Origin: an uncultured Gammaproteobacteria bacterium
GTDB taxonomy: Bacteria; Patescibacteriota; Patescibacteriia; UBA11705; JABHMO01
Direction: 5' to 3'
Assembly (NCBI GenBank): GCA_964590105.1
Contig: CAZPYM010000001.1
Span: 76,768 to 140,767, forward strand
Length of the DNA stretch: 64,000 bases
Position 1 is the stretch's first letter. Every line of letters begins with the position of its first letter. Positions 9,626-59,133 of the stretch are shown piece after piece. A model generated the notes under the pieces. That model was not told the origin of the DNA. It ran no database searches and worked only from the letters and a program-made list of their open reading frames with translations. The position numbers were made by a program, and so were the translations under genes.

Positions 9626-9710
9626 AACACGAATGGGCTGCACGCGAATGACGCGAATTAGAGAGTAAATCGAAGACAACGAAGCAATGAAATAAAGAAA
9701 CAATTAATCA

Positions 9711-9737
9711 ACAAAGAGATTTGTTGGTTTTTTGATT
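9711..9737 (+). terminator. intrinsic terminator after the kinase gene
   Basis: aacaaa-gaga-tttgtt hairpin followed by ggtttttt. Confidence 0.4.
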
Positions 9738-9781
9738 TTAGGATGATTTACCATGGTAAAAAAGTTATCCACAGGGGGCTC

Positions 9782-9809
9782 TTGACGTATTTAATTACAC
9801 GAGTATAAT
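9782..9809 (+). promoter_or_regulatory. sigma70-like promoter for the large noncoding region; a consensus DnaA box lies just upstream (9765..9773)
   Basis: TTGACG (9782..9787), a 16-nt spacer, TATAAT (9804..9809); upstream TTATCCACA. Confidence 0.5.
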
Positions 9810-9816
9810 AGGCATT

Positions 9817-10952
9817 ACAGTCGCAAAAAGCTCATTACAAGTCAGAGGCAGAAAAAGACAAGGGACGTCATGGATTGAAGCGCAAGCAGAGAACCATGAT
9901 CTAGCTATGAAAAGCGCCTTGCACTTACCTGCACCATTGATCAAGTAGCCAAAGCCAGCGAGTAATCAAAGGCCAAAGCAAAAGATCAAGCCAGCTGTTC
10001 AAGCCAAAGCAGAAAGCTTAGTGAAGACAACAAACTCTTGATTTCGTAGAGATACGGAGCCAAAGGCAAGTTGAAAACACAAAGCCAAAAGCAAAAGCAA
10101 GAACACGACTTCAAAACCTATGACCTCACGGTCAGAAGTCCAGAAGTTCAAGGCAGTACTAGCACTGTGGTTGAAGAAAAAGACCGGAGCAATCCGGAAA
10201 CTATCCTCAACACTAATCCAGTCTTTGGAATTGTAGCAATACAAACCCAAAGAAAAGCCAGACCAAAATCCGGCTCAAAGCAAAAAGCAACGTCGCAAGA
10301 CAATGCAGAAAGCTAAGAGCTAGATAAAAGTTTGACCTGGAATCACGCAAGCGCAAGCAAGCAAGATTCCCAGTGATTAGAAGGCAATGGAAGCCGCGAT
10401 CGCAAGATCAAAGCAACCAAAGCCAAACACAGCGCGAAAAGTTCAAGCGCAAACCGGGGACCAGACCAAAGCGGTCTGCTTCGAAAGAAGACTTGTTACT
10501 TCGGTAATAAGTAGCCGGAATGCATCAGTCCCCTTAAAAGGATTGAAAGATGCCAAAGGGCAAACCTGACAAGGAAAAGGAAAGCTTGATGGAGAGAGTA
10601 TCTATCAAAAAGGAAATAAACCTTGGCAACAAGGCAGACATCCTTGGAGAAAGTAACTCAAACTATCTTTAGTTCACTTCGGTGGACAAGCTGCCAAATC
10701 AATTCAGAAGAACTTCTGGAGGAGGATGACACCTGGAGGAGCAATCCAAAAGGAATATTCCTTGATACCATTAGTTCAAAAGAAAAGAAGAGGTCACCCC
10801 CAGTACCTGTCATGGCGAGCAAAACGCGCGTCTACTTGAACCAAGCACTTGGTAAAATCTTTCATGTAAATGAGCCTGAGGCAAGCCAACCAGCAAGCCA
10901 CTAGCGACTCATAGGAGGCAATCGTCACAACGAGAGCCTCCTGTTTTTTTTG
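9817..10952 (+). ncRNA. candidate large (~1.1 kb) structured noncoding RNA of unknown class
   Basis: Promoter-to-terminator unit with stop codons in all frames and only 60-93 aa low-complexity ORFs. Strongly T-poor and A-rich on the + strand, with CAAAGC-like repeats. Contains two C(UUCG)G hairpins (cttgttacTTCGgtaataag; gttcacTTCGgtggac), a GNRA hairpin (ccggaGCAAtccgg) and a cagacc/ggtctg hairpin. Confidence 0.45.
10914..10952 (+). terminator. intrinsic terminator ending the noncoding unit
   Basis: ggaggc…gcctcc stem with an inner tcg/cga stem, followed by gtttttttt. A second GC hairpin (ccctgcc/gggcaggg) lies just downstream. Confidence 0.6.
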
Positions 10953-12642: not shown

Positions 12643-15392
12643 GCGATAAAAATAATTATTTAGTTTGTACCGAATGCGGCGGAACCGGCCAGGTCGAAGG
12701 AAATGTTTGCAATGTTTGCCGCGGACTCGGCGTGGTGTTGTTTTTGAACGACAAAGTTTTGTATTGGGGCAAGCATTATGACGCGCTGAATATTGCTTAC
12801 GACAAGATAACAACAAAGTTTAAAATCATTTATAATCTGGCGTTGGGACTAATCGGGCTGTCAGGGCTTGCGGTAATGGTTTACTATGGCTATCAGGACA
12901 ATTTTGTTGCATTTTTTTCTTATAAATACTGGTTAACGCCGAGCAGTGAAAAATTATATTTTTGGCTGACGCTTTTGATTGATTTGTATTTATATTATCG
13001 ACTGGAGCAGGAAGTGTCTTTGAAATACAGAGTAATGACTAAGAAATTTCAGTCAGGAATTGGCTCGGTTGCAGGAATGATTGATTGGGAAAGTATCAGT
13101 AAAATGAAAAAAGGAGAAATGGTTGACATCTCCGATACTTTTACCGGGGAAGCGAAAAAAGCAGTGCAAGCGAGCTTTGAGCTGGCCTGCCACTTTGAAC
13201 ACGGGGAGGTTTTGAGGGTTCATTTTTTTGGTATTTTATTTCAATTTGATAAATCAGCTATTATTCTAGCGCGGCTCGGTATAAACTTTGAACAGCTAAA
13301 ACAAAAGATCAGCAGATTTTTGTCCAGAAGCATTGTCAGCCGGCCGGGGATCCCCGGGCTGTCAGCTGAGTTATTAAAGTTGCTTTTGGCGGCTTATGCG
13401 GAAGCATATTCATCCAATAAAGACAAAGTTGATTTGCCGGAAATGGCGCTGTCTTTGGCCAATCCCGAGATCGTTGAAAAAGATAAACTTGATGAAGTTG
13501 AAGAAATATTAGTTGATTTTGATTTAAATTATCAAAAAGTAATAAATGTTGTTGCCTGGATCAGGATTCAAGAACAAATGCGCAGCAACTGGCAGAGATT
13601 TCGCGGGCGGGCTAGATATAAGCCAAAGTCAGGCATGGATAGAGCCATGACAGCGATCGCCACGCCTCTGCTTGACAAGTTTAGCGAAGACCTGACCGTT
13701 CTGGCCAAGTACGGGCAATATTTTCCTTGCATCGGCCGCGCTGACGAATTTGAAAAGATTTTCAGAGTCATTGAAGGCTCAAGACAAGGAGTGCTTTTGA
13801 TAGGAAATCAGGGAGTCGGTCGCACAACGATTTTGCAGGGGCTGGCTGGGCGCATGGCTTCAGAAGATGTGCCGGAATTATTGCAAGACAAAAGATTGGT
13901 CAGCCTGAACGTAGCCAGCTTACTGGCCGGCGTTGACGCGAGCGGCGCAGAGCAGAGATTACTTTATATTATTGATGAAGTGATTCGTTCCGGCAATATT
14001 ATTTTAGCGGTGGAAAATATCCACAATTTGCATGGCATCACAGCCGGCGGTGAGAACAGTCTAGATTTATCCGAGGTCTTTGCCCAGTTGCTGTCCAAAC
14101 ATTTATTTTATTGTCTGGCCACGACCACGCCTGACGGTTATGTAAATACGATTGAAAACAAAACATTGGATGCGGCTTTTCAGATTGTTAAAATTGATGA
14201 ATTGGAATTAAACGACGCAATTCAAGTATTGGAAGCAAAAAGCGGGCCGATTGAATATCAAAATAATATTTATTTTTCATATTCGGCAATAGAAAAAGCA
14301 GTAGTTTTGTCTTCCAGGTACATTCATGACAAATATTTGCCTGAAAAAGCAATCGGTATATTGGAACAGAGCGCCATTAAAGTAAAACAAGAAAGGGGTG
14401 TGGATAAAGTCGTGTTGGGTGAAGACGTGGCTGAAGTTATTTCCAGTATGACCAAGATTCCTCTGACTCAAGTGACGCAAAAAGAAAGCGAAAAACTTTT
14501 GAATATGGAAGACAGAATTCACGAGCGCATGGTTGATCAGGAAGAAGCGGTAAGTCTGGTGGCTGCCAGTCTGCGCCGGGCGCGGGCTGAATTGCGCGAA
14601 GGCAAGAGGCCGATCGCCAGCTTGCTGTTTCTCGGGCCGACCGGTGTTGGAAAAACCGAGCTGGCCAAAACAGTTGCAGAAGTTTATTTTAGCAATGAAA
14701 ATTCCATGATCCGCATCGACATGTCAGAATATCAGGAACAGTCGAGCATCGGCCGTTTAATCGGCCATGGTTCTAGCGCCGGCATTTTGACCGAGCAGGT
14801 GCGCAAAGCGCCATTTAGCTTGGTTCTCTTTGATGAGATAGAAAAAGCGCATCCCGATATTCTAAATTTATTTTTGCAGGTGCTGGACGATGGCCGGCTG
14901 ACTGACGCGCGCGGACGAACAATTGATTTCACCAGTACGATTATTATTATGACTTCCAATGCCGGCGCGCAATATATTCAGGATCAGATTAGAAAAGGCG
15001 AAGCCATTGAAAAAATAAAAGATTATTTGATAAATGAAGAATTAAAACAACATTTTCGGCCGGAATTTCTAAATCGTTTCGACGGCGTGGTTGTTTTCAA
15101 GCCTCTGTCAATGGTCGACGTGATCAAGATTGCTCGACTGATGATAAATAAAATTACTGCGCGATTAAAAGAAAAAGGAATTGAATTCAGCGTTACGGAC
15201 AGCGCAATCGCCGAGTTGGCTGAACTGGGTTTTGATCCAAAATTCGGCGCTCGGCCATTGCGCCGCACTATCCAGGAGCGGGTTGACGACGCACTGGCCA
15301 ATAAGATTTTAAAAGGCGAACTTGGCAGGCGGGATCGTGTAGTTATGGACGTCGGTGGAGAGTTACAAATTGAAAAAGCCGAGAAATTATAG
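12639..15392 (+). CDS. ClpC/ClpB-like AAA+ chaperone with an N-terminal DnaJ-type zinc ribbon plus TM segment(s), a degenerate D1 ATPase and an intact D2
   Basis: N-terminal CTECGGTGQ…CNVCRGLG, then hydrophobic helices, then Clp_N-like repeats. D1 Walker A reads GNQGVGRTT and Walker B ILAVENIHNL (both non-canonical); D2 Walker A GPTGVGKTE, Walker B LVLFDEIEKAH, and a sensor/arginine region. Confidence 0.7.
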   Translation: MSDKNNYLVCTECGGTGQVEGNVCNVCRGLGVVLFLNDKVLYWGKHYDALNIAYDKITTKFKIIYNLALGLIGLSGLAVMVYYGYQDNFVAFFSYKYWLTPSSEKLYFWLTLLIDLYLYYRLEQEVSLKYRVMTKKFQSGIGSVAGMIDWESISKMKKGEMVDISDTFTGEAKKAVQASFELACHFEHGEVLRVHFFGILFQFDKSAIILARLGINFEQLKQKISRFLSRSIVSRPGIPGLSAELLKLLLAAYAEAYSSNKDKVDLPEMALSLANPEIVEKDKLDEVEEILVDFDLNYQKVINVVAWIRIQEQMRSNWQRFRGRARYKPKSGMDRAMTAIATPLLDKFSEDLTVLAKYGQYFPCIGRADEFEKIFRVIEGSRQGVLLIGNQGVGRTTILQGLAGRMASEDVPELLQDKRLVSLNVASLLAGVDASGAEQRLLYIIDEVIRSGNIILAVENIHNLHGITAGGENSLDLSEVFAQLLSKHLFYCLATTTPDGYVNTIENKTLDAAFQIVKIDELELNDAIQVLEAKSGPIEYQNNIYFSYSAIEKAVVLSSRYIHDKYLPEKAIGILEQSAIKVKQERGVDKVVLGEDVAEVISSMTKIPLTQVTQKESEKLLNMEDRIHERMVDQEEAVSLVAASLRRARAELREGKRPIASLLFLGPTGVGKTELAKTVAEVYFSNENSMIRIDMSEYQEQSSIGRLIGHGSSAGILTEQVRKAPFSLVLFDEIEKAHPDILNLFLQVLDDGRLTDARGRTIDFTSTIIIMTSNAGAQYIQDQIRKGEAIEKIKDYLINEELKQHFRPEFLNRFDGVVVFKPLSMVDVIKIARLMINKITARLKEKGIEFSVTDSAIAELAELGFDPKFGARPLRRTIQERVDDALANKILKGELGRRDRVVMDVGGELQIEKAEKL

Positions 15393-17096: not shown

Positions 17097-17920
17097 CTAG
17101 AGTTTTTTCGCACCAAGGATTTTTTGCAACAGGAATTTCTTGTGTTCAGTCAGCGTTTCAGCCGTGGCGCGGACAGTGCTGGCGAGAAGCGCTCTCATTT
17201 CTTGTTCATCTTCCGGTAGGGCAATGGGAGTATCGCAGTCAAGTTCTTCGTCTGAAGCAGTTTCCGGATAGAGCTTTCTAATAGAACCTGTTACGTTCGA
17301 AAGCAGGCTTGACAGCGCCATGTTAGTGCGTTTGATGAAAAGCTGGAGCAGCGCGCCCATTAAGGCTGTTTCTGATATTTTCGAATCCGGCTCGCGGACA
17401 ACGCCGATGATGGCGTAGACATTCAAGGCTGGAGTTCCGGCATGGTGGAAAAAGTGGCAGGTCGTTTCGTTTATTTGGCAGACAGGCACAGCTTTGTCGT
17501 CAAGGAAAACAAGAGTGCATTGGCGCCGCAAATTGAGTTCGGGAATAAGCTGATTGATCAGCATTATCATTAGTTCGTGCTGGATGTCCTCAAGCGTTTC
17601 CTGGCCGGTATTCCTGCCAAAAGAAAAGTCATGTACTCCGGTTCCGGAACCAAGGTCAGGGGTCCCACGGTAAGAAAAGCCGCGACCGACAATACCTGGT
17701 TGCCAGATAACAGCGCAGTGGCTTTGACGGAACTTACAGATTACTGACCCCGAGATAAACATTTGTTTGGCGTTTTCCGGTGATTGGAAAATCAGACCTT
17801 CGTGCAAGACCTGGGCGCACAGCTGTCCTTGGAGCAGCTTTTCTTCATTAAAATAAAGCACTAGTACGTGCTGTCCAGAACTTTGGGCTAACTCACATTC
17901 TTCTTCGCTAATCATGCTTC
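17097..17920 (-). CDS. hypothetical protein, GC-richer than its neighbours, unknown function (His/Cys-rich, possibly metal-dependent)
   Basis: About 274-aa ORF from MISEEE…; no family recognised (motifs such as HFFHHAG and GSGTGVHDF); sits between rplU and recR. Confidence 0.45.
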
Positions 17921-18060
17921 CTCCTCCCCATTCGTCCGAGCAGGCTTGCCTGTTCACGAATCAAGGGCACAAGGGTTTGAGCAATAATCCAGACCTTCTG
18001 GATTATCAAAGAGCCAAGACATTTAACTTATTGAATTTTATAAAATTTGTCAAGTGTATC

Positions 18061-18663
18061 TTATTTTATTTCTTGCCTCCCCTTGAGCGCATTGGCCAGC
18101 GTAACTTCATCGGCATATTCAATATCCGCGCCCATAGGCAGGCCGCGCGCCAGAAGGCTAATTTTGACGTTTAGCGGGCGGAGAATATTTTTTAGGTGAA
18201 TAATAGTGCCTTCGCCCAGAATGTCCGGATTTAGGGCTAGAATGATTTCCTGAATTTGTTGATTTTTTATTCTTTCGGTCAATTGAGAAATATTGAGCTT
18301 ATCCGGTGTGATTCCTTCCGGCGGATCGATTTTTCCGCCGAGAACATGATAGAGGCCTTTGTATTCGCCGGTGGCTTCGATTACGTTCAGGTCGTGAAAT
18401 TCTTCTACAACGCAGATGATGGAATGGTCTCTGTTTGGCGCTGAACAGACGGCGCAGTTGTTTTCAGTTTCAGAAAAATTAAAACATTGCGGGCAAGTGA
18501 AATTGTGATTGTGCAGTTCAGACAAATCGTGGGAAAACTTCAAAATAATTTCTTTTGGCTGTTTTAGCAAAGAAAAAACAAAACGCTCGGCGGTTTTTCG
18601 TCCGACGCCGGGCAGGGTTGAAAAAGAGTCAATCAGATTGCTAATTTTTTCCGGGTAGCGCAT
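18061..18663 (-). CDS. recR: recombination protein RecR
   Basis: HhH N-terminus (LPGVGRKTAERF), C4 zinc finger (CPQC…CAVC) and Toprim region. Confidence 0.85.
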   Translation of the reverse strand: MRYPEKISNLIDSFSTLPGVGRKTAERFVFSLLKQPKEIILKFSHDLSELHNHNFTCPQCFNFSETENNCAVCSAPNRDHSIICVVEEFHDLNVIEATGEYKGLYHVLGGKIDPPEGITPDKLNISQLTERIKNQQIQEIILALNPDILGEGTIIHLKNILRPLNVKISLLARGLPMGADIEYADEVTLANALKGRQEIK

Positions 18664-18980: not shown

Positions 18981-19119
18981 AGGGAGTGGGTAGTAAGTAG
19001 AGACGCAAAAATTTGCGGCTGCATTATAAGTTAAAAGTTAAAAAGTAAAAGTTAAAAGTTAGAAATTGGAATCCAAGAAAGTCAGGTAGTGGAAAATAAA
19101 AAAATGAAATTGTGGAAAA

Positions 19120-20496
19120 TTAATTTTCGGCAGTGAATTTTTTATCAAGATTTTTGAAACTGGCGCGCGGTTCATCAAAAAATAGTTTAATGAGCCCGGT
19201 TGGTCCGTTTCTATGCTTGGCAATGTGTATTTCCGCCATATATCTTTCTTGTGAAGTTAATTCTTCAATCCGATAGTTGCGGTCAGCTGCTTTGCGGTAA
19301 ATGAACATAACCACGTCAGCATCTTGTTCAATCGAGCCGCTTTCTCGCAAGTTTGCCAACTTGGGAATAGCTGGTTTATTCATTTCTACGGCGCGCGACA
19401 ACTGCGAGAGGGCGAGTACAGGTAAATCCAATTCTCTGGCAATGCCTTTTAGCGCCCTTGTGATTTCCGCCACTGCCTGTACGCGGCTTTCCGCGCCGGG
19501 CCGGGCTTCCATCAATTGCAAATAATCAATAACAATCATTCCCAGATTGTGTTCTGCTTTTAGACGGCGAGCTTTTGTTCTGATTTCCATTACGTTGAGA
19601 GAGGCAGAATCGTCGATGAATATAGGCGCTTCTGACAATACTCCCATGGCGTGGCCAATGCGCGGGAAGTCATCATCTTCCTCGCGATCAGATAATTTTC
19701 CGGTTCGCATTTTCCACAGGTCGACGTTTGCTTCGGCGCAGAGCAAGCGGTCAACCAGCTGTTCTTTTGACATTTCTAAACTAAAAACGCCTACCGGAAC
19801 TTTGGCTTTGATCGCAACTTGGCGAACAATATCGAGAGCCAGAGATGTTTTTCCAACAGATGGGCGGGCGGCCAAAATTACCAGGTCGGACTTTTGCAGG
19901 CCGGCGAGAAGATTGTCCAGATCAGGAAATCCGGTTGGCACGCCGCGCAGTTTGCCGCTGCTCTTGTGCAATTCGTCAATGCGGTCAAAGGTGTCGCCAA
20001 GAATGCTGCTGATCGGCGTGAAAGATTGCTGGACAAAATTTTGTGAAACAGCAAAAAGTTTTTGCTCGGCTATGTCCAGAATTTTGTCTATGTCGTGATC
20101 TTCTTCATACGTTAATTGGGTGATTTCCGAGGATACGCTTTGCAGTCGCCTCAAAGTGGCCTTTTTTTTGATAATATTGGCATATTGAATCACGTGGCTC
20201 GAAGTGGGCACGGTATGAGACAAGGTTACCAAATAACTGCGGCCGCCGGTTTTTTCCAAATGATTTTTTTCTTCGAGAAGATTAGTTACCGTTAATAAAT
20301 CAATTGGCTCTTGCTTGGAGTACAGCGCGACCATTGTTTCGAAAATAAGTCGGTGAGCGTTTTTGTAAAAATCTTCAGGACGAATAATGTCGGCGATTTT
20401 ATCAAAAGAATCTTTGTCAATCAAAATTGAGCCTAGGAAAGATTGTTCAGCTTCCAGGTTTTGTGGCGGAATTTTGGTTTTGTCTAGTTCTTGCAT
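19120..20496 (-). CDS. dnaB: replicative DNA helicase DnaB
   Basis: DnaB N-domain plus RecA-like domain with Walker A ARPSVGKTS and the IVIDYLQL motif. Confidence 0.85.
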   Translation of the reverse strand: MQELDKTKIPPQNLEAEQSFLGSILIDKDSFDKIADIIRPEDFYKNAHRLIFETMVALYSKQEPIDLLTVTNLLEEKNHLEKTGGRSYLVTLSHTVPTSSHVIQYANIIKKKATLRRLQSVSSEITQLTYEEDHDIDKILDIAEQKLFAVSQNFVQQSFTPISSILGDTFDRIDELHKSSGKLRGVPTGFPDLDNLLAGLQKSDLVILAARPSVGKTSLALDIVRQVAIKAKVPVGVFSLEMSKEQLVDRLLCAEANVDLWKMRTGKLSDREEDDDFPRIGHAMGVLSEAPIFIDDSASLNVMEIRTKARRLKAEHNLGMIVIDYLQLMEARPGAESRVQAVAEITRALKGIARELDLPVLALSQLSRAVEMNKPAIPKLANLRESGSIEQDADVVMFIYRKAADRNYRIEELTSQERYMAEIHIAKHRNGPTGLIKLFFDEPRASFKNLDKKFTAEN

Positions 20497-20685
20497 GAGT
20501 CTAAAATTGGAAATTTGAAATTAGAAATTAGGGCAGGGGCCAAGCAATTTCCAATCCAACTTCAACCCCAGTTTCAAATTTCCAGTTTCGTTATTTCTCC
20601 CCCTCATCTTATTACATCCTTCCTGAATTAACAAGTTGATAATATCTGGATAAATCGGGCATTGAGAAGTCTATTGGCAGTAATA

Positions 20686-24907: not shown

Positions 24908-24983
24908 TTAAAATTTTAACTTATTTTGTGAGTTTTAACAAGTTGGCAACCAAGTTAATCGAGTTAATCAACTAATTAACCAA

Positions 24984-26594
24984 TCAACTAATCAACTTTT
25001 TTGTCATATACGTGCCCTCAAGCTTGTATCCCAGTTTTCTGTAAAATCCGCGCACGCCGATACCGGAGATAACTGCGATTTTTTTAAAACCTTTTTTACG
25101 AGCGATCATTTCAGCTTCATGCGTTAATTTTGTTCCCAACCCGGTATGTTGAATTGAAGTACGGATTACGGATTTGCTTTGAGCTAAGGAAACCAAGCGT
25201 CCATAAGTATGGACTTCGCGGATCATGGCGCAGTCTTGAATTTCTTTAATAATATTTTGTTCTGATTTTTCCGGCAGACGCAGGCGCAGGAAAGCGTACA
25301 ACTTTTTTTTGTTTGGCGAAGCAAATTGTAAAAAGTATTCACTAGCATCTGAGGCTTGATATTTCTTTGTAAATAATTTGGCTTGGCTTAAATTTTTAAT
25401 GTCTTCTCTGGCTTCACGACAACGAATGCATTTACACCATTTACCTTCAGCTTTCAATTTGGTTTGAAGTGTCTGACGGAGATTACTGACCAGATTGCCG
25501 GCTTCAATACTTTCTTTTGGAATGTCGCGAATTAATCGAATGATTCGAACATATTCAGGTGTGGATAACTTTAATTGAAAAAGTAAATCCAAAAGTTGTT
25601 TGTCAGTGTAAGGTTTATATTTGCCCTGTTTCCACCATTTGAAAAGCAAGGAGTTTTTTGTAACTACAGTGGGATAAATTTTTATCAGATCCGGCTGAAA
25701 ATCCTGATTTGTAAAAAGTTTTTTAAAATTTTGCAGATCTTTTGCCGGGGTCGCGCCCGGTAAGTTTGGCATCAGGTGATAGGCGACTTTGAAGCCGGTT
25801 TGTTTGAATAATTTTGTTGCCCGAATTATTTCACCGGTTCCGTGTCCGCGTTTATTTAATTTTAAAATTTTGTCGTCAGCGATTTGTACGCCGAGTTCAA
25901 CTTTTGTAGCGCCGAGTTCCCGCCAGTATTTAATTTCCTCGGCATCAATATAATCCGGCCGCGTTTCGAGCGTCAGTGCCACGATTCTGTGTTTGGCTTT
26001 TTCATTGAGCTTGTGAGCTTGACGGATGTTTTTTGAAGTTTTGGAATTGCAGGCGTCAAAACAGCGTTTCACAAACCATTTTTGATATTGCCGCGGCAAG
26101 TATGACCAGGTGCCGCCCATGATGATCAATTCAATTTTGTCTGTGGCGTGGCCGTTGTTTTCCAGAGCCCTTAGCCGGGATTTTACCTGAATAAAAGGGT
26201 TAAAGCGCGCCGCTATCGCCCGCATTACAGCCGGCTCGTTTGACAGGTAGCTCTTTGGCATGTTTTTTTCATCGGGGCAGTAGGCGCATTTCCCGGGGCA
26301 GGGAAATGGTTTTGTCAGAACAGCGACCGGCGCCACGCCGGATAGAGTGCGGATTTTTCTTTTTTGCAAAAGTTTTTCCAAGTCTTTATTTTGTTTAATC
26401 TTGTTTTGTTTAATGAGCCGGCGATACAAATTCAAAAGCTCGGCATTTGAAATCATGCCGGCTTTGTTTTTATTGGCGGATCGTCGTTTGATTTTATTCA
26501 GGCGATTATAATTCTTGATTTTCATTGCCGCCAATTCAAAAAGTAGTTGTTGCGCTCCTTCAGTAGCGCTTTTAGTAAATCGGTTCGAAGTCAT
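24984..26594 (-). CDS. Elp3-like radical SAM / GNAT acetyltransferase (bacterial elongator protein 3 homologue)
   Basis: CPGKCAYCP (CxxxCxxC) radical-SAM cluster and a C-terminal GNAT fold (…HTGLGTKL…). Confidence 0.7.
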   Translation of the reverse strand: MTSNRFTKSATEGAQQLLFELAAMKIKNYNRLNKIKRRSANKNKAGMISNAELLNLYRRLIKQNKIKQNKDLEKLLQKRKIRTLSGVAPVAVLTKPFPCPGKCAYCPDEKNMPKSYLSNEPAVMRAIAARFNPFIQVKSRLRALENNGHATDKIELIIMGGTWSYLPRQYQKWFVKRCFDACNSKTSKNIRQAHKLNEKAKHRIVALTLETRPDYIDAEEIKYWRELGATKVELGVQIADDKILKLNKRGHGTGEIIRATKLFKQTGFKVAYHLMPNLPGATPAKDLQNFKKLFTNQDFQPDLIKIYPTVVTKNSLLFKWWKQGKYKPYTDKQLLDLLFQLKLSTPEYVRIIRLIRDIPKESIEAGNLVSNLRQTLQTKLKAEGKWCKCIRCREAREDIKNLSQAKLFTKKYQASDASEYFLQFASPNKKKLYAFLRLRLPEKSEQNIIKEIQDCAMIREVHTYGRLVSLAQSKSVIRTSIQHTGLGTKLTHEAEMIARKKGFKKIAVISGIGVRGFYRKLGYKLEGTYMTKKLIS

Positions 26595-28362: not shown

Positions 28363-29085
28363 ATGGACTTAAACGAATTAAATAAACAAAGTTATAACAA
28401 GATTGCTGAACTTTTTGCCAGTACTCGAGGTTATATTTGGGGGGATATTAATTTGTTGATTAATTACGTTAAGGCGGGAGATAAAGTTCTTGACGTTGGA
28501 TGCGGGAATGGAAGGCTAGGTAAAAGTTTAAAGGTAAAAGGTAAAAGTATAGGCTATATTGGAATTGATAACAGTGAAAAGTTAATAGAACAGGCGCGAA
28601 GGGCTTATTCTGATATAAAGTTTGAAGTAGCTGATATCTTGGAATTTGGTGCTTCGAACTGGGCGCTTGAAAGCTTTGATGTCGTTTTTATGAATTCGGT
28701 CTTAAATCATTTTCCAAAGGATAAACAAACGCAGGTTTTGAGAAATGTAAAAAAGGTCCTTCGACCGGACGGAAAGCTTTTGATGGTCAATTGGAATCTA
28801 TGGAATATAAATAATTTAAAATCAATTTGGCGGAATATTCCTTTTGTCAAAATTATTTTTGGTGGAGAAAGAGGGGTTGTTACCCGCTGGAAGACAACCG
28901 GAATTGACGTGCCGCTATATTATTATGCTTTTACCAAAGGTGAAATAAAGCGGTTGTTGAAAAAAAACGGATTTAAAATTATTAAAAACTATTACAGCGC
29001 CAAAAATGATCCTGATCAGCCGGGGAGGAAAAGCTGGTGGTTGTTTGGCTTGAATATTGTGACGATTGCACGAGCAAAAGATTAA
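28363..29085 (+). CDS. class I SAM-dependent methyltransferase
   Basis: VLDVGCGNGRL motif I and a Rossmann MTase layout. Confidence 0.7.
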   Translation: MDLNELNKQSYNKIAELFASTRGYIWGDINLLINYVKAGDKVLDVGCGNGRLGKSLKVKGKSIGYIGIDNSEKLIEQARRAYSDIKFEVADILEFGASNWALESFDVVFMNSVLNHFPKDKQTQVLRNVKKVLRPDGKLLMVNWNLWNINNLKSIWRNIPFVKIIFGGERGVVTRWKTTGIDVPLYYYAFTKGEIKRLLKKNGFKIIKNYYSAKNDPDQPGRKSWWLFGLNIVTIARAKD

Positions 29086-29754: not shown

Positions 29755-29822
29755 TTTAAGTTGTAAGGTTTATCAATGTTATTTACATTTTGAGCTGATT
29801 GTCTTCTGTGGGCCTTCGGCGA

Positions 29823-29848
29823 GTTACTTTTTGGCAGCAAAAAGTAAC
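29823..29848 (+). other. 10-bp perfect hairpin GTTACTTTTT-GGCAGC-AAAAAGTAAC in the murC leader; a near-identical hairpin recurs in the secA leader (34431..34457)
   Basis: Direct inspection; part of a ~180-nt GC-rich structured leader (29790..29975). Confidence 0.4.
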
Positions 29849-29980
29849 CACCCTTCGACTCCTTCCGTCGCTCAGGGTGACACAGAGGCACAAAAGGGCG
29901 AACGAAGTTTATGCTGAGCGGAGCGAAGTGCCCCGGACCCCGTGGAATGAAATGTATTGTTCACTGATTTTTAAAACATT

Positions 29981-31345
29981 ATGAATTTAGAGAATACAAA
30001 AAAAGTTTTTATAAGCGGCATTGGCGGCATCGGCGTTTCAGCCCTGGCGCGGTTTTTTATTAGCAAAAGAATTGAAGTTGTTGGCTCTGATTCAGAAAAG
30101 TCGGAGATAACTGAAGCGTTGGAAAAAAGAGGCATTAGAATTTATTACGATCAAAAAGCGGAAAATGTTACTTTTGCCAATGACTTGTTTGTTTATTCGG
30201 CAGCTGTTCCTCTTGATAATCAGGAAAGAAAAAAGGCCAAAGAACTCGGGCTCCCGCAAAAAAGTTATTTTGAAGTTCTGGGCGAGATCAGCCGGCTTTA
30301 TAACACGGTGGCGGTTTCCGGCACTAATGGCAAATCAACAACCACGGCCATGATTGCCGGCATTTTGCTCAAGGCTAGGAAAGATCCGACCGTGATCCTT
30401 GGCTCTTGTTTTGAAAAGTTGGACAACAATTTTCGCGCCGGCGCGTCAGACCTTTTTGTTGTCGAGGCCTGCGAATATCGGGCGCACATGCTCCTGCTTC
30501 ATCCTCAAACAATCGTTCTGACAAATATTGAGGAGGATCATTTGGATTTTTACAAAGACATCAATCATATTGTGCAGACATTTCAACAGTATGTAAAAGG
30601 GCTTCGTTCGGAAGACAATTTATTGGTAATGAACAGCGATGATGTAAATATCCGGAAAATGGCTTTGCCGAAATGCAAAATTGTGCGATTCGGATTGATC
30701 GGCGGCACTGACGTGTGGGCTGACAATATCCGCAAATTGCCGGGTAAGCAAATTTTTAATGTTATTTATTACGGCCAAAATATCGGTGAATTTGAGCTCA
30801 GCGTGCCGGGTGATTTTAATATTTATAATGCGCTTGGCGCCATTGCCTATTGCCTGACTCTGAATATTTCGATTGGCGAGGTGAAAGAAGCGATTCGCGA
30901 GTTCAGGGGAATCTGGCGGCGATTTCAAATTATCAAAGACAAAGAAATAACTGTGATTTCTGATTACGCTCATCACCCGACCGCTATTAGAGAAACAATT
31001 AAGGGCGCACGGGAATTTCTACCGGGCCGCCGCGTGGTGGCGGTTTTCCAGCCGCATCAGCGCGATAGAACAAAAAAGCTATTGGCTGAATTTGCCAAAA
31101 GTTTTGATTTGGCTGATGCAGTGATTTTGTCGGAAATATATGATGTTGCCGGCCGCGAGCAGGAGATTGCTATTAGTTCAAATGATTTGGCGGGGATTAT
31201 GAAAAAAGAAAAACCAAGTAAGCAGATATTTTTTGTCAAAGATCTGAATGAAACAAAAGAAAAAATTAAAGAGATTGTAAAAGATGAAGATATTGTTTTG
31301 GTAATGGGGGCGGGGGATATTTATAAGATTGTTAAGGAAATTTAA
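29981..31345 (+). CDS. murC: UDP-N-acetylmuramate--L-alanine ligase
   Basis: ISGIGGIGVSALARFF Rossmann N-terminus, Mur ligase Walker A GTNGKSTT, and a C-terminal Mur domain. Confidence 0.8.
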   Translation: MNLENTKKVFISGIGGIGVSALARFFISKRIEVVGSDSEKSEITEALEKRGIRIYYDQKAENVTFANDLFVYSAAVPLDNQERKKAKELGLPQKSYFEVLGEISRLYNTVAVSGTNGKSTTTAMIAGILLKARKDPTVILGSCFEKLDNNFRAGASDLFVVEACEYRAHMLLLHPQTIVLTNIEEDHLDFYKDINHIVQTFQQYVKGLRSEDNLLVMNSDDVNIRKMALPKCKIVRFGLIGGTDVWADNIRKLPGKQIFNVIYYGQNIGEFELSVPGDFNIYNALGAIAYCLTLNISIGEVKEAIREFRGIWRRFQIIKDKEITVISDYAHHPTAIRETIKGAREFLPGRRVVAVFQPHQRDRTKKLLAEFAKSFDLADAVILSEIYDVAGREQEIAISSNDLAGIMKKEKPSKQIFFVKDLNETKEKIKEIVKDEDIVLVMGAGDIYKIVKEI

Positions 31346-31346
31346 T

Positions 31347-31385
31347 GCGAATATGCTTATCTGCGAATGCCGCGAATATGCGAAT
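31347..31385 (+). repeat. array of four GCGAAT(A) heptamer repeats immediately after murC
   Basis: TGCGAATATGC…TGCGAATGCC…CGCGAATATGC…GCGAATAGC. Confidence 0.5.
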
Positions 31386-31478
31386 AGCACAATGGAAGAA
31401 GCCTTCGCGCAAGTGATTAGTTCTTGTAGCAATTTGTGTATTCGCGGCATCCGCATGATCTATAATTCGCATAACTAT

Positions 31479-31866
31479 ATGGATGAAGATAAAATAATAC
31501 ACAAGCAATTATCCTACGATATTAATGGGTTATTATTTCGAGTTCATAATGAGCTTGGTAAATATTGCAATGAGAAGCAGGTCGGCGACTTGCTCGAGCA
31601 GTTTTTAAAAGAGGAAGGGTACAATTATGAAAGAGAAAAAAATTGTTCCGCCGTTATTTGAGAATGAAAAGCCAGGACGCAACCGTGTTGATTTTGTGAT
31701 TGAAAGTAAAGTTGTTATAGAGCTTAAAGTAAAGAGAATTTTATCTCGTGAAGACTATTACCAGCTTCGTCGATATTTAAAAGCATTGAATTTTAAATTA
31801 GGGATATTGGTAAATTTTCGTAGCGATTATTTAGCGCCAAAAAGAGTTTTAAATTCAATAGCTTAG
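31479..31866 (+). pseudogene. GxxExxY-family PD-(D/E)xK protein (PDDEXK_3-like) split by a frameshift in an A7 run
   Basis: N-part …LFRVHNELGKYCNEKQVGDLLEQFLKEEGYNYEREK and C-part KPGRNRVDFVIESKVVIELKVK…YYQLRRYLKALNFKLGILVNF match the family end to end. The reading frame changes at gagaaaaaaattg (31631..31642). Confidence 0.55.
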
Positions 31867-31874
31867 CTTTAACT

Positions 31875-31929
31875 ATTCATCTATTCGTTTATTCGCATAT
31901 TTGCATCATTCGCATAGTCTCTAATTCGC
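31875..31929 (+). repeat. array of ATTCGCA(T) repeats, the inverse of the upstream GCGAAT array
   Basis: ATTCGCATAT, CATTCGCATAG, TAATTCGCATAA plus two degenerate copies; one more copy overlaps the -10 at 31461..31471. Confidence 0.5.
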
Positions 31930-32103
31930 ATAAACCATATGGAGGAGTTAGCTCGAAAAAAAGGAAGATTAAAAAAGCAACAAAAAAAGAAATTGGCTAA
32001 ATCATCAAGTACGCTGGCGGGTCAGGCGTCAAGAATGAAAACAGCCAAAGGATATTTCGGTCGGCGCGAGGCAGGCGTTAAAATTAAGTTTGATTAAGTT
32101 GAA

Positions 32104-33072
32104 ATGGCTTGGTATAATATGGATATGAAAGAGCAATTAATGAAAAAAATAGGTCTGGAAGTTTTGGAAAATGAATTATTGGCAAATTACACTACTTTTA
32201 AAATTGGCGGCCCAGCCAAATTTTTTGTTAGAGTGAACAACAAAGCTGATTTATTTAAGACATTAAAAGCAGTCAAGGAATTTGATCTGCCTTTTTTTAC
32301 TTTGGGTGGCGGCAGTAATGTCCTCGTGGCGGACAAAGGTTTTGATGGTCTAGTTATCAAATTGCATGACGGGCAGGCTGAATTTTCCGGGCAAACTGTT
32401 AAAATTTTTGCCGGCCATAGCTGGGCCGGATTGATTCGGGAATGTGTAAAAAAGGGGCTTGGCGGGCTGGAATTTGGCGCCAATATTCCGGGCACGGTTG
32501 GCGGTGCTGTTTACGGCAATGCGGGAGCCTATGGCAAGGGAGCCGGCGATTATATTCAAAGCGTGGAAGTCATTTGTCTGGATGACAATGAAATCAATCT
32601 TAAAATTTTAACCAAAGATGATTGCGCGTTCAATTACCGCGACAGTATTTTTAAAAAACATAAAGATTGGATTATCAGTGAAATTGTTTTTAAGCTTGAG
32701 CGCGATGAAAAAGCCATTGAAAAATTAAAACAAATTGAAAATGAATGGCAGAGTCGCTGTGACAAACAGCCACTGAATCTTCCGAGCGCCGGTTGTTCAT
32801 TCAAAAATGTCATATATACCGGCGAGCTTGATCGTTTCAAAGAATGGGAAATAAAGGGCAAATTGCCGGCCGCCAAGTTTATTGAAGATGCGGATTTAAA
32901 GGGTATGAAAATTGGCGGTGCCTTGGTTTCCGATAAGCACGCAAATTTTATTGTTAATACCGGCAATGCCAAAGCGGACGATATTGTCCAGCTGATCAGC
33001 GTGATCAAAACCAGAGTGCGCAATGAGTTTGGCGTTCAGCTGGAAGAAGAGATTCAGTATGTGGGGTTTTGA
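32104..33072 (+). CDS. murB: UDP-N-acetylenolpyruvoylglucosamine reductase
   Basis: FAD-binding domain (TTFKIGGPAKFF…GGGSNVL) and a C-terminal MurB domain; the exact start is uncertain (32104, 32119 or 32125). Confidence 0.8.
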   Translation: MAWYNMDMKEQLMKKIGLEVLENELLANYTTFKIGGPAKFFVRVNNKADLFKTLKAVKEFDLPFFTLGGGSNVLVADKGFDGLVIKLHDGQAEFSGQTVKIFAGHSWAGLIRECVKKGLGGLEFGANIPGTVGGAVYGNAGAYGKGAGDYIQSVEVICLDDNEINLKILTKDDCAFNYRDSIFKKHKDWIISEIVFKLERDEKAIEKLKQIENEWQSRCDKQPLNLPSAGCSFKNVIYTGELDRFKEWEIKGKLPAAKFIEDADLKGMKIGGALVSDKHANFIVNTGNAKADDIVQLISVIKTRVRNEFGVQLEEEIQYVGF

Positions 33073-33231
33073 AGTCGTATGTGAGAAGTGATAAGTGAAA
33101 TTGAAAGAAAAGATCGCAACCCCAATTTCTAGTTTCCAATTTCCAATTATATGTACCATCGTTCAATACTGCGAGCTGTTCTTAATTACAAAATTAATAT
33201 TGTAATTAAAGTTTTGATTTTTTCGGATTTT

Positions 33232-41857: not shown

Positions 41858-42245
41858 ATATCTGGTTATAAACAAAATTTTTAAATCCTTAGAAGTAGAA
41901 CATTCCTGTTTCCCTAAAAATCGGACATTTCTACTTCCCCTTTACACAGCCTGTCAAATTCTTGACATATTTGGTAAAACGAGTTAAGGTAAGACCACAA
42001 ATTGACTGGAAGTAAAGACGTTTGCCTAATTGGGGCAGAAAATTGTATAATAAGTTGGCTAAAATTAGCAACATTGCTCAAAATGCTTGACATTTGTTTA
42101 TTTTAATGATATCATTATCACAAGCTAAACAAGATAGAGGTGATGGAAGGAAACTGGAAATTAGAAACTAGAGACTAGGGTAGCTCAATATTCATTATTA
42201 TATATTTTAACTGATAATTCGCTTGTCGGTTAATCGCTCATAAGT

Positions 42246-46860: not shown

Positions 46861-47559
46861 ATGGCAAAAATTAGATTAAATAAATATATTGCAGATTGCG
46901 GAATAGCTTCGCGCCGGAGTGCGGAGCGTTTTATATTACAAGGGTTAGTAAAAGTAAATGGAGATTTGGTAACAGAACTTGGGACAAAGATTGACGTGGA
47001 AAATGACCGCGTCGAAGTCAGCGATCAACTAATCAACCAATCAACCAATCAACCAGTTGTCCTGATGCTGAATAAACCGGCCGGTTATGTTTGTACATCA
47101 AGAAAATTTAAAGGTGAGAAAAATATTTTGGATTTAATTAATCTCGAACAGCGGGTTTATCCTGTCGGTCGTCTGGATAAGGATTCAACAGGCCTCCTGC
47201 TCCTGACCAACGACGGCGATTTGGCTTTGAAATTAACGCACCCTCGTTACGAAAAGGAAAAAGAGTATGAAGTGGAAGTTGATCATGAGATTAGCAGTGA
47301 ATTTATCGATGAAATGCAACAGGGCGTCACGTTGGAGGACGGAACAACCTTGCCGGCAAAGGTAAAACAGCTTTCTTATACTGCGTTTTCAATTGTTTTG
47401 GGACAGGGAAAAAAACGGCAGATCAGGCGGATGTGCCAGGAACTTGGGTACCGGGTAGTGGGATTAAATCGAGTCCGTATCAATAAACTGGAGCTCGGAG
47501 ATTTGGCTGTCGGCGATTATCGGATTTTATCGGAAAAAGAAATTGCTTTATTAAAATAG
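46861..47559 (+). CDS. RsuA/RluB-family 16S/23S rRNA pseudouridine synthase
   Basis: S4 domain N-terminus and the catalytic GRLDKDSTGLLLLTNDG motif. Confidence 0.75.
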   Translation: MAKIRLNKYIADCGIASRRSAERFILQGLVKVNGDLVTELGTKIDVENDRVEVSDQLINQSTNQPVVLMLNKPAGYVCTSRKFKGEKNILDLINLEQRVYPVGRLDKDSTGLLLLTNDGDLALKLTHPRYEKEKEYEVEVDHEISSEFIDEMQQGVTLEDGTTLPAKVKQLSYTAFSIVLGQGKKRQIRRMCQELGYRVVGLNRVRINKLELGDLAVGDYRILSEKEIALLK

Positions 47560-54895: not shown

Positions 54896-55059
54896 TTGGT
54901 CGGGAAATTTAATTCGAATAAACATTATAAAGGTGGACGGTTAATTAAGTTTGCGCCAAAGGCGCAGCCACCTATGGCGGAAATTCAGCTAATCTAGTTG
55001 ACCTCCTTTATCTTTTCCTTACTTTTACCTTTTACCTTTTAACTTTCAACTAATTCCGT

Positions 55060-56937: not shown

Positions 56938-57363
56938 GTGGAGATTTATATGAAAATCAAATGTATTATTTTTGATTTTTACAATGTCTTGTACCCTTTT
57001 ACTGCTGAAGCTGAAAAGGTTGTTGAATATTGCCGAAGTAAAGGATTAAAGCTGGCGGCGGTTTCCAGTTTATCCCCAGAAAAAGTTGATGAAATTGCCA
57101 AACATTATAAAATAGATACAGTGCTGGCTTCCTGGAACTTTGGTCTGCACAAAACTCAGCCTGAAATTTATCAGCGATTGCTCGGCCGGCTGGAACTAAA
57201 GGGTTGCGAATGCCTGATGGTTGACGATGAGCAGATCCGGCTTTCGGCGGCGAAAAGCTGCGGAATAAATACGGTTTGGTTGAAATTGGTGGAAGGTGAT
57301 AAACTTGAAACAACGGATTGCGTAATCAGCGAACTAGGGGAACTAAGTGAATTAGCGAATTAG
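56938..57363 (+). CDS. small HAD-superfamily hydrolase-like protein (variant motif I, DFYN instead of DxDG)
   Basis: IIFDFYNVL (motif I-like) and MVDDEQIRLSAAKSCGINTV (motif IV-like). Confidence 0.45.
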   Translation: MEIYMKIKCIIFDFYNVLYPFTAEAEKVVEYCRSKGLKLAAVSSLSPEKVDEIAKHYKIDTVLASWNFGLHKTQPEIYQRLLGRLELKGCECLMVDDEQIRLSAAKSCGINTVWLKLVEGDKLETTDCVISELGELSELAN

Positions 57364-57395
57364 CGAATTGGAGAATTGGCGAATTGGAGAGTGGA
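57325..57395 (+). repeat. tandem 8-9-bp repeats (GAACTAAG/GAATTAGC/GAATTGGC…) spanning the HAD gene's 3' end and the intergenic region
   Basis: gaactaggggaactaagtgaattagcgaattagcgaattggagaattggcgaattggagag. Confidence 0.4.
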
Positions 57396-57659
57396 AATAA
57401 AATATAAATAAGCCGAGGAGCTCCGAGCGGAGCGAGGAGCGACGAGGCGGCCGTCCGCCGGGACATACGCTTTCCCCCTCCCGACGGAGCGCAAGGGAAA
57501 GCGGAAATAATTATTGAATTGAAAAGCGGAGTACAGGGAGGGGGACAAAGGGGGTGGGTTCTTGCGGTAAGCGATTATATGCGGCGGATTCGTGAAAGGG
57601 CGGTTTCAGAAATTTCGATGAACTTAATTAACCTAATTAATCTTAATTAACTTTATTAT

Positions 57660-58943: not shown

Positions 58944-59133
58944 AGAGGATATAGGATGAACAGGATAAATAGGAGATTAGAAACTGGAAATCAGAAATTG
59001 GGGTTACTGTCTTTTCTTTCTATTTCACATCTCACGTCTCACTTCTCACTTCTCATGTCTTACTACTTTTTCGCGTTTGTAATTTGTTATTTGCTTGTAA
59101 TTTGTTATTTGTAATTTGTAATTTTATTATTTT

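Follow-up and report, generated by a model that had tools for sequence, protein, structure and literature searches.

What kind of object is a small nuclease-family gene that is split by a frameshift and bracketed by short tandem repeats in the middle of a cell-wall gene cluster? This question is raised by a stretch of 64,000 nt (hereafter, the window) from an uncultured bacterium that GTDB places in the Patescibacteriota, or candidate phyla radiation (CPR). It corresponds to positions 76,768 to 140,767, forward strand, of contig CAZPYM010000001.1 (assembly GCA_964590105.1). The gene order there is murC, a region with a gene of the GxxExxY family (NCBIfam TIGR04256; PDDEXK_3, Pfam PF13366), a conserved open reading frame (ORF) of 52 aa, and murB. 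We give an even chance to the reading that this region is a gene-bearing copy of a dispersed palindromic element of Patescibacteria, i.e., a selfish cassette with a PD-(D/E)xK nuclease, akin either to the intervening sequences (IVS) of rRNA genes or to repetitive extragenic palindromes (REP) and their REP-associated tyrosine transposases (RAYT).

The repeat unit is 8 nt long (consensus, ATTCGCAT) and belongs to the family ATT-N-G-Y-A. In inverse orientation, GCGAAT is found at 31347, 31363, 31372, and 31380; in direct orientation, ATTCGCA is found at 31891, 31908, and 31924, with degenerate units at 31875, 31883, and 31899 (steps of 8, 8, 8, 9, and 16). A further ATTCGCA (31465-31471) overlaps a TATAAT box (31461-31466). 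The unit positions on both strands thus bear out the preliminary description, made from the letters of this locus, according to which inverted arrays flank the gene and one copy lies over its -10 box; an additional unit, at 31440, had gone unmentioned. There are three arms rather than two: left (L), middle (M), and right (R). Arm M ends 4 nt before the ATG of the GxxExxY gene, the TATAAT box lying 12 nt before that ATG, while arm R ends 8 nt before the ATG of the small ORF, its last ATTCGCA ending at 31930. Tandem Repeats Finder reports a period of 8 on both sides, with 5.1 copies (31345-31386) and 6.2 copies (31882-31932) in opposite orientation, and the left-right inverted repeat has 59-nt arms that are 71% complementary. 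Arms M and R form a direct repeat, 43 nt of M being 77% identical to 31891-31933, and the copy runs through the start codon, with ATATGGA shared by both (...ATTCGCATAAC-T-ATATGGATGA vs. ...ATTCGCATAAAC-C-ATATGGAGGA). The start-codon bases are therefore duplicated at the GxxExxY gene and the small ORF, as ATGGA in the window and as ATGGAGGA for both copies in L014, a Candidatus Kuenenbacteria metagenome-assembled genome that is the closest genome we found (MurC, 78% identical). The six arm copies of the window and L014 align as one module of ~45 nt, composed of three units, a spacer of 8-9 nt, and a fourth unit.

These arrays stand out by clustering and not by overall abundance. Across the window the heptamer occurs at background frequency (18 matches vs. 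19.3 expected). In the preliminary description, a background frequency genome-wide had been named as an argument against a real element. This is not a valid test, since the window as a whole is at background and yet the element is real: 7 of the 18 matches fall within 587 nt, where the rate in the rest of the window predicts 0.10 (nominal Poisson P = 2e-11, for an interval picked after seeing the data), and none of 20000 random placements reproduced the cluster. Similarly, six of the seven ATTCGCAT octamers in the window lie within 590 bases around the gene, and the degenerate motif AT[TC]-N-G-[CT]-A, which occurs about once per kb per strand, forms clusters within the 64 kb at the two arms only.

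What does the gene encode? When one A is deleted from the run of seven (A7) at 31636-31642, a 128-aa protein results, which matches TIGR04256 with 77.1 bits (cutoff, 35) over profile positions 2-115 of 116 and PF13366 with 81.4 bits (cutoff, 22). This end-to-end match confirms the family assignment that had been made by eye. An AlphaFold (AF2) model with a pLDDT of 92 predicts a minimal PD-(D/E)xK fold of mixed alpha/beta type, whose best Foldseek matches in the PDB are Cas4 SSO0001, lambda-type exonucleases, the AddB nuclease domain, Hjc, and tRNA-splicing endonucleases. These are generic PD-(D/E)xK folds, and sequence and profile searches of the PDB returned nothing significant. In an alignment of 27 homologs and the corrected protein, all 24 invariant columns are kept in the latter, including the catalytic residues D71, E81, and K83. 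As for the motif that gives the family its name, the CPR subfamily reads L-G-(K/R)-Y-C-N-E-K-Q-Y, with E32 invariant, while the window and its ortholog have V for Y and a displaced first G, as judged against typical members, which we take to represent the canonical placement of G-x-x-E-x-x-Y. When compared with L014, the corrected gene shows a dN/dS of 0.07 overall and of 0.115 downstream of the shift, murC showing 0.06, with synonymous sites near saturation (pS, 0.62-0.72). By the model and the codon comparison, the product is a protein of predicted nuclease fold under purifying selection. A role in a defense system was rejected, PADLOC returning a noise-level HicA-like match only. PHROGs gave a single match, to a family of unknown function.

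Do the arrays belong to the murC-murB locus or to the gene? We assembled a set of 12 GxxExxY loci from CPR genomes, i.e., the window and 11 loci from a metagenome scan with ATTCGCATATTCGC and from context look-ups of homologs with 56-70% identity. The scan itself returned 120 loci, mostly chance matches, among which ~15 are real arrays and one (L078) comes with a GxxExxY gene. A direct-orientation array lies 3' of the gene in all 12 loci, and an inverse array lies upstream in 11 of them, often starting at the TAA of the upstream gene. In the 10 loci that were counted, 3-7 direct units and 0-1 reverse units are found within 140 nt of the stop codon, with variants such as ATTCGCA, ATTAGCA, ATTTGCA, ATTCGTA, and ATCCGCA. 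The right array is degenerate in L150 and follows a second small ORF in L159. The core ATT-N-G-Y-A is kept across proteins that are only ~60% identical, while the spacers between cores vary. The ORF is tightly packed between the arms, and the element spans the distance from host stop codon to host start codon. The host contexts are diverse: between murC and a small ORF, between pgk and recJ, between jag and an unknown gene, upstream of thyA, of miaA, and of mazE-PIN, and within a TrbL/TraC cluster. Since the same arrays flank the gene at unrelated host loci, they belong to the gene and not to the murC-murB locus. There is also a strict orientation bias, the gene pointing the same way as the host gene downstream of it in 15 of 15 loci (the 12 CPR loci and the distant loci L147-L149), or 13 after collapsing two orthologous pairs.

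Two of these comparisons are signs of recent movement. The cassettes of L142b and L145 are 92% identical at the nucleotide level over 454 nt (the ORF from about codon 8, the R arm, and ~35 nt beyond), in surroundings of unrelated genes. The cassette of L078 separates pgk from a recJ-like gene, while in L159 pgk and recJ overlap and the cassette comes after recJ. Moreover, the same arrays occur as gene-less hairpins, whose arms almost abut and which fill spacers exactly from TAA to ATG. In L145, two such hairpins (rpmH/yidC and yidC/jag) adjoin the gene-bearing copy; others are found in L143 (two), L140 (one), L002 (murB/hpf and the next spacer), and L125 (rpoA/rplQ). An enzyme gene bracketed by an inverted repeat that also exists as gene-less doublets is thus seen in 11 of the 12 CPR loci.

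Three side observations concern these cassettes. In L159 (1958-2287), and also in L158 and L160-L165, a second ORF, which is 92-109 aa long and matches no known family, separates the GxxExxY gene from the right arm; therefore, the cargo can exceed one gene. On the 19-kb contig L142, a gene of 229 aa (12999-13688) with a weak match to Y1_Tnp, the Pfam family of IS200/RAYT-type transposases, lies between two GxxExxY genes (10001-10372 and 17683-18084); its presence on the same CPR contig as two cassettes may be a coincidence. Finally, the annotated proteins P0043, P0052, and P0098 have spurious N-terminal extensions rich in A-N and D-A-N (e.g., ...TNDANFNANDTNYAN...), which look like translated upstream arrays of TGCGAAT type, an annotation artifact that could serve as a cheap marker of arrays.

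Is the element variable at the murC site itself? In L014, the layout is the same, with an intact 130-aa gene (P0001; 84% identity) and cleaner arms. The gene is absent from two other relatives. In L001, the site reads murC-TAA-T-ATG-small ORF, with a single base between stop and start. In L002, the spacer is 174 nt long and contains two ATTCGTA units only, which adjoin the ATG and look like a leftover right arm. The cassette is thus present in the window and L014 and absent from L001 and L002. The empty sites read TAA-N-ATG, while the element ends are TAATGCGAAT...ATTCGCAT(T/A)A, the TAA being the stop codon of the upstream gene. At the murC site, the element predates the split from the L014 lineage and has been passed on vertically. 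The earlier likening of the arrays to the termini of a cassette or of a miniature inverted-repeat transposable element (MITE) gains support from these data: the unit recurs in unrelated contexts, two relatives lack it at the murC site, and there are gene-less counterparts.

The arms also have a marked capacity to pair. L and M fold into one long hairpin (31345-31473) that fills the whole spacer between murC and the GxxExxY gene (-57.4 kcal/mol; z = -6.2), the equivalent stem in L014 being 24 bp long with one mismatch (-54 kcal/mol; z = -6.9). Arm R alone is unstructured (-4.7 kcal/mol; z = 0.07), and the RNA duplex of L and R in the window reaches -51.7 kcal/mol. Across elements, L and R arms from one and the same element form an RNA duplex of -43.0 kcal/mol on average, vs. 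-27.6 for arms of different elements, and the own partner arm ranks first in 7 of 13 cases. In whole-element folds, L pairs with R across the ORF of ~400 nt in all 10 typical elements. The window differs, M being the partner of L there. Its L-M hairpin amounts to a gene-less copy to which a gene and an R arm are attached. The arms are conserved beyond neutrality, since the window and L014 share 44 of 49 positions of the L arm despite the near saturation of synonymous sites. A role of the L-M hairpin as an intrinsic terminator of murC was rejected, as it has no U-tract and a scan for terminator-like sites returned none.

In the model that we infer from these data, the element would consist of two inverted arms, each with 3-6 copies of the 8-nt unit, that exactly fill a host intergenic spacer. 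The gene-less copy would be a simple hairpin, and the gene-bearing copy a hairpin whose loop has been replaced by a compact nuclease ORF co-oriented with the host operon. The GxxExxY nuclease would be the element's own selfish enzyme, recognizing the units, or the hairpin or cruciform that they form, and cutting there. The gene, and possibly the arms, might then spread in a homing-like manner, by break-induced copying from a filled copy into empty palindromes; alternatively, the enzyme might mobilize the palindromes themselves, as proposed here by analogy with REP/RAYT. In read-through transcripts, the arms would pair into a long stem with the ORF in its loop, as in the rRNA IVS removed by RNase III, and such pairing would keep the insertion nearly harmless. 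The last unit would supply a -10-like TAAT/TATAAT box 12 nt before the ATG, so that the nearly leaderless downstream gene could stay expressed.

Several observations weigh against this model. Two proteins, P0049 and P0022, each present on 22-24 contigs, are identical across samples and always in the same context; they give no sign of very recent jumps, and movement is therefore rare. The 64-kb window contains no other ATTCGCA array and hence no sign of dispersal in this genome; likewise, a tblastn search with 40 homologs found no further GxxExxY copy in the window. Neither a target-site duplication nor a clean empty/filled junction could be defined at high identity, the sequences being too diverged. 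The cassette has been kept at the murC site, under purifying selection, while synonymous sites became saturated, and a role beneficial to the host would explain such long retention and selection equally well. Mismatches between arms are G.U rather than A.C by 29 to 17, a weak form of the excess that an RNA stem should leave, and transversions between unit cores are frequent. Nuclease activity is itself a prediction for this family, PF13366 being listed as of unknown function in a 2012 survey of the superfamily (PMC3424549). Finally, among eight distant GxxExxY genes on plasmids or chromids, which are described below, three have no flanking inverted repeat.

The reading that survives best beside ours holds that the arrays are RNA elements of the host, of the kind of IVS stems or of the short tandemly repeated repetitive (STRR) sequences of cyanobacteria, that stabilize operon mRNAs, process them through RNase III, or uncouple their genes, the GxxExxY gene being an unrelated passenger that puts up with, or favors, hairpin loops as safe sites, and its nuclease having no bearing on the arrays. 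We regard it as rather unlikely. It would account well for the frequency of gene-less hairpins exactly between the stop and start codons of operons, for the strong structure of the L-M stems, for the pairing of L with R in whole-element folds, and for the co-orientation of the gene with host transcription, and the STRR hairpins have indeed been discussed as possible elements of transcript stability or translational coupling (PMC2670836). However, pure structure would let the units drift, whereas the core ATT-N-G-Y-A is kept across proteins that have diverged to ~60% identity, and across phyla the type of unit changes along with the protein clade (see below). The weak G.U asymmetry also tells against it: together with the free variation between cores, it is no less compatible with a protein that recognizes the cores than with a pure constraint on an RNA stem.

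Could that protein be a host regulator? The arrays would then be operator or architectural sites for a DNA-binding protein, a repressor or an IHF/HU-like protein, under whose control the flanking genes would stand. Inverted pairs of short tandem units do look like multi-site operators; the last unit overlaps a -10-like box before both the GxxExxY gene and the small ORF; and 53 such pairs in Geobacter metallireducens have been interpreted in this way (PMC2700814). However, there is no regulator gene within or adjoining the unit, and the arrays accompany the nuclease gene, and not a host promoter, into functionally unrelated loci. Because the arrays move with the gene, we find this reading improbable, and the dedicated repressor envisaged in the preliminary description is not borne out. 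From the geometry of B-DNA, we further infer that a period of 8 nt would keep successive sites off one helical face. A scan for sigma-70 promoters found 4 promoter-like sites in the region vs. 3.8 expected, and an array of such promoters was rejected for want of an excess.

Is the frameshift real, and what does it mean? Both halves of the gene, and a +1 shift within A7, were upheld. As for the remark that reads with A6 or A8 would restore the gene, it holds for A6 only: as read from the sequence, the frame is regained by A6 or A9 alone. Six contigs from six ENA samples (L166-L171), which were assembled separately, show 100% identity with the window across 660 nt, A7 included, and there are no length variants among them. 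The frameshift is therefore real and not a random sequencing error. The 79-aa downstream ORF is annotated as a gene of its own on 15 public contigs, and no intact version >84% identical was found among 5.8 billion protein clusters. The mutation is fixed in this population, and it is very recent, since the dN/dS of 0.07 and all invariant residues have been retained. Hence the GxxExxY gene of the window, unlike an intact member of its family, carries a one-base insertion, and it should be annotated as a pseudogene. This copy carries an extra middle arm and has just lost its reading frame by an A6-to-A7 insertion. In our model, the frameshift, together with the remnant arm in L002, would fit the decay-and-loss phase of a selfish nuclease gene.

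There is little probability in the suggestion that A7 is a programmed or phase-variable slippage site, where transcription would drop one A or the ribosome would slip by +1, with a split gene that is still expressed and a locus that acts as a switch rather than being a pseudogene. The shift does lie in a homopolymer where, as read from the sequence, tRNA-Lys would re-pair perfectly in the +1 frame (A-AAA-AAA), there is no second lesion, every invariant residue is intact, and dN/dS remains low past the shift. However, a very recent mutation explains that low dN/dS equally well, the frame-0 codon after the putative slip site is an ordinary AAT, neither rare nor a stop, the ortholog in L014 has no A run here and is simply intact (gagaaaaggtt), and the six assemblies show no length variants. 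In addition, efficient transcriptional slippage takes homopolymer runs of about 9 or more, and A7 is shorter. That the gene is intact in cells and the shift an error of sequencing or assembly is scarcely credible: the lesion is a single base in a homopolymer of an otherwise perfect gene, but the concordant A7 contigs, the separately annotated ORF, the missing intact version, and contig names (k141_...) that suggest short-read assemblies all speak against it.

Does the association of gene and arms extend beyond CPR? We considered eight GxxExxY genes that are only distantly related (28-55% identity) and come from chromids or plasmids in other phyla. Inverted arms surround such genes in four other phyla, three of these being arrays of other units (Table 1). 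By protein clade, the unit is ATTCGCA in CPR, CACAGAG(G)A in Bacteroides and Bernardetia, CGCGAAGG in Sphingomonas, and CGCAGAGGA in Gemmatirosa; as far as the sequences compared can tell, it tracks the protein clade. Separately, the related units ATTCGCAC and ATTTGCAC were noticed, as hairpins without a gene or as long runs, in contigs that look like Bacteroidota or gut bacteria (L112, 2734-2812 and 3290-3345; L048, 2740-2880; L084, 1545-1616; L053, 1288-1390), one pair flanking an ndk gene on both sides.

Tentatively, we suggest a generalization that is possible but on balance doubtful: GxxExxY proteins across phyla would be dedicated nucleases of palindromes built from tandem 7-9-nt units (STRR-type repeats, the paired sites of Geobacter, the arms and heptamers of IVS-like elements), each clade recognizing a unit of its own (for CPR, ATTCGCA; for Bacteroidota, CACAGAG; for Sphingomonas, CGCGAAGG), with the gene either cutting empty palindromes and copying itself into their loops or mobilizing the palindromes, as RAYT does with REPINs. 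A literature search returned no paper linking the GxxExxY family to flanking arrays, which is not proof of novelty. On its own, the window is a modest result, one decaying copy that sits harmlessly in a cell-wall gene cluster. The class is of wider consequence: the large family PF13366/TIGR04256 would gain a testable function, and hairpins of short tandem units have lacked an explanation ever since cyanobacteria and Geobacter brought them to notice. If nuclease family and hairpins belong together, both gain a concrete, testable role, and they would make up a second system of the REP/RAYT type, one that arose independently and relies on another enzyme fold.

Table 1. Features of the murC-murB region in the window, followed by the distant GxxExxY genes and their flanking repeats
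Feature	Position or locus	Strand	Remarks
murC (upstream host gene)	29981..31345	+	ORF; Mur_ligase Pfam families on the identical gene in L166; orthologs at 65-78% identity
Left arm, L	31343..31388	-	Four (T)GCGAAT units at 31346, 31362, 31371, 31379; inverse of ATTCGCA
Loop of L-M hairpin	31389..31428		Not conserved, window vs. L014
Middle arm, M	31429..31474	+	Units ATTTGTG, ATTCGCG, ATCCGCA, ATTCGCA; pairs with L; direct copy of R
GxxExxY gene, 5' part (frame 0)	31479..31661	+	Premature stop after frameshift; ORF list, profile matches
GxxExxY gene, 3' part (+1 frame)	31627..31866	+	D71...E81-x-K83 catalytic motif; invariant columns kept; dN/dS 0.115 past shift
A7 run with one-base insertion	31636..31642	+	A6 would read ...YEREK-IVPPLF...
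Right arm, R	31873..31933	+	Six units ATTCATC, ATTCGTT, ATTCGCA, ATTTGCA, ATTCGCA, ATTCGCA; period 8-9, then 16
Conserved 52-aa lysine-rich small ORF (downstream host gene)	31939..32097	+	Homologs between murC and murB in L014, L001, L002
murB	32104..33072	+	FAD_binding_4 and MurB_C Pfam families; extended -10 box (TGgTATAAT) immediately 5' of ATG
Bacteroides finegoldii	L148		CACAGAGGA-type arrays
Bernardetia	L147		CACAGAGA-type arrays
Sphingomonas (fabD/gene/fabG)	L174		CGCGAAGG-type, 25 nt, 92% complementary
Gemmatirosa	L176		CGCAGAGGA-type, 28 nt, perfect
Treponema	L149		Single 11-bp inverted repeat
Prevotella, Persicobacter, a fusobacterium	L172, L173, L175		No flanking inverted repeat seen

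The host genes around the element merit a few remarks. The TAA stop of murC (31343-31345) directly abuts the first repeat unit (TAA-TGCGAAT). The downstream ORF matched no Pfam or NCBIfam family, but a small K/R-rich ORF of 52-59 aa is present between murC and murB in four of four genomes (window, 31939-32097; L014, 5939-6097; L002, 5570-5731; L001, 5382-5561), and it may encode a small protein of the cell-wall cluster that annotation has missed. In three genomes, an extended -10 box (TGnTATAAT) ends 0-6 nt before the ATG of murB, with no Shine-Dalgarno sequence (window, 32090-32118; L014, ~6105-6125; L002, ~5742-5762), which points to leaderless mRNAs. A -10-like box also precedes the GxxExxY gene and the small ORF, in each case 12 nt 5' of the ATG. 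No recombinase gene lies between 29.5 and 34 kb of the window. The window has no rRNA, its Rfam matches being two tRNAs only.

Other repeats were observed elsewhere in the window. A second, unrelated family of intergenic tandem arrays has the unit GAAAYTR (20503-20589, 33124-33143, 42150-42176, and 58973-58999), with 13 matches vs. 4.0 expected, a number reached in none of 100 shuffles. At 20495-20595, two inverse arrays form a hairpin (z = -3.2), and the spacer that follows murB (33081-33147) shares 84% identity with 58976-59042 read in inverse orientation. At none of the four sites does an array contain a gene. More arrays of 7-9-nt units lie in or near spacers, at 19024-19061, 24965-24997 and 47024-47055, 28517-28549 and 55020-55052, 57349-57387, 57621-57658, and 59025-59124; their units are GTTAAAA, TAATCAAC, AGGTAAA/CTTTTAC, GAATTRGC, TAATTAAC, TCACGTC, and TTTGTAA. 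Some are near-identical distant pairs (91-93% over 30-33 nt), and several end at a start codon. A segment of ~1.2 kb (9700-10950) is without a long ORF, purine-rich, and "aaagccaaagc"-like; it has no Rfam match at E <= 0.1, and a CGCGAAT-like array lies just upstream (9630-9665). Finally, two GC-rich islands in AT-rich spacers (29790-29950 and 57400-57600) share motifs of the gagcggagcga(a/g)g type and have no Rfam match at the gathering threshold; they may be remnants of another repeated element or a small RNA.

How does the element compare with known systems? Two candidates were set aside. An integron gene cassette was rejected in view of the tandem-array arms on both sides, the murC/murB neighbors, and the stretch from 29.5 to 34 kb devoid of recombinases. 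A XerC/D dif-like site was rejected, too: ATTCGCATAA resembles a XerC arm, but no TTATG-type XerD arm follows at the right spacing. Unlike MITEs and insertion sequences, the element has no link to a known transposase, its sole ORF in the window being the GxxExxY gene.

Like free-standing homing endonuclease genes, the element combines a small nuclease gene with presence/absence polymorphism of its site, intact host genes, and a cycle of spread, decay (the frameshift), and loss (the remnant arm in L002). Unlike them, it has no known homing family, it would target a repeated palindrome rather than a conserved gene, its cleavage activity is predicted, and its gene has persisted vertically for long under purifying selection.

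The gene-less copies look the same as two kinds of intergenic repeats whose function is unknown. Cyanobacterial STRR sequences are intergenic tandem short repeats that can form hairpins (PMC2670836), and the paired sites of G. metallireducens consist of 3-5 tandem units of 7-9 nt on opposite strands, pairs that can form hairpins between operon genes (PMC2700814). In the window, too, at least three tandem units of 7-9 nt stand in an intergenic position on opposite strands. However, those reports describe neither a gene inside the pairs nor a link to a nuclease family, and the units are different (GTTGCTYN, TCTCCGTS, and MTYCTGA).

REP sequences and the doublets that they form (REPINs), which together with RAYT make up REPtrons, are short intergenic palindromes that are dispersed and occur as gene-less doublets, while a few inverted copies bracket an enzyme gene; the enzyme is thought to act on the repeats, and the type of repeat co-varies with the clade of the enzyme. 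The present element is similar in each of these respects. It differs in that its enzyme has a predicted PD-(D/E)xK fold and not an HUH/Y1 one, the window protein having no Y1_Tnp match, in that its arms are made of tandem 7-9-nt units and not of a single REP of 20-40 nt, and in that mobilization would here be putative.

The closest described objects are the rRNA IVS of Leptospira, Coxiella, and Salmonella. These are elements of ~0.4-0.7 kb whose terminal inverted repeats form a long stem with an ORF of ~120-130 aa in the loop; they have tandem heptamers of variable copy number beside the ORF, the ORF is prone to decay, and they are regarded as selfish (PMC4990558). The IVS in the 23S rRNA of Coxiella, for example, has a terminal stem of 28 bp, a small decaying ORF, and 2-4 tandem heptamers, varying in copy number, beside that ORF, and it is excised by RNase III (PMC4990558). 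Here, too, the arms enclose an ORF of 128 aa and pair in RNA folds. However, the present element lies between protein-coding genes and not in 23S or 16S rRNA, and its ORF encodes a GxxExxY protein of the PD-(D/E)xK type and not the S23p four-helix bundle, so that two defining features of rRNA IVS are lacking. In addition, its arms are whole arrays of 8-mers, and processing by RNase III is here putative. In sum, the instance in the window is an ordinary decaying copy, and the class to which it points, a PD-(D/E)xK nuclease gene in the loop of tandem-unit palindromes in several phyla, is probably a variant of known selfish palindromic elements.

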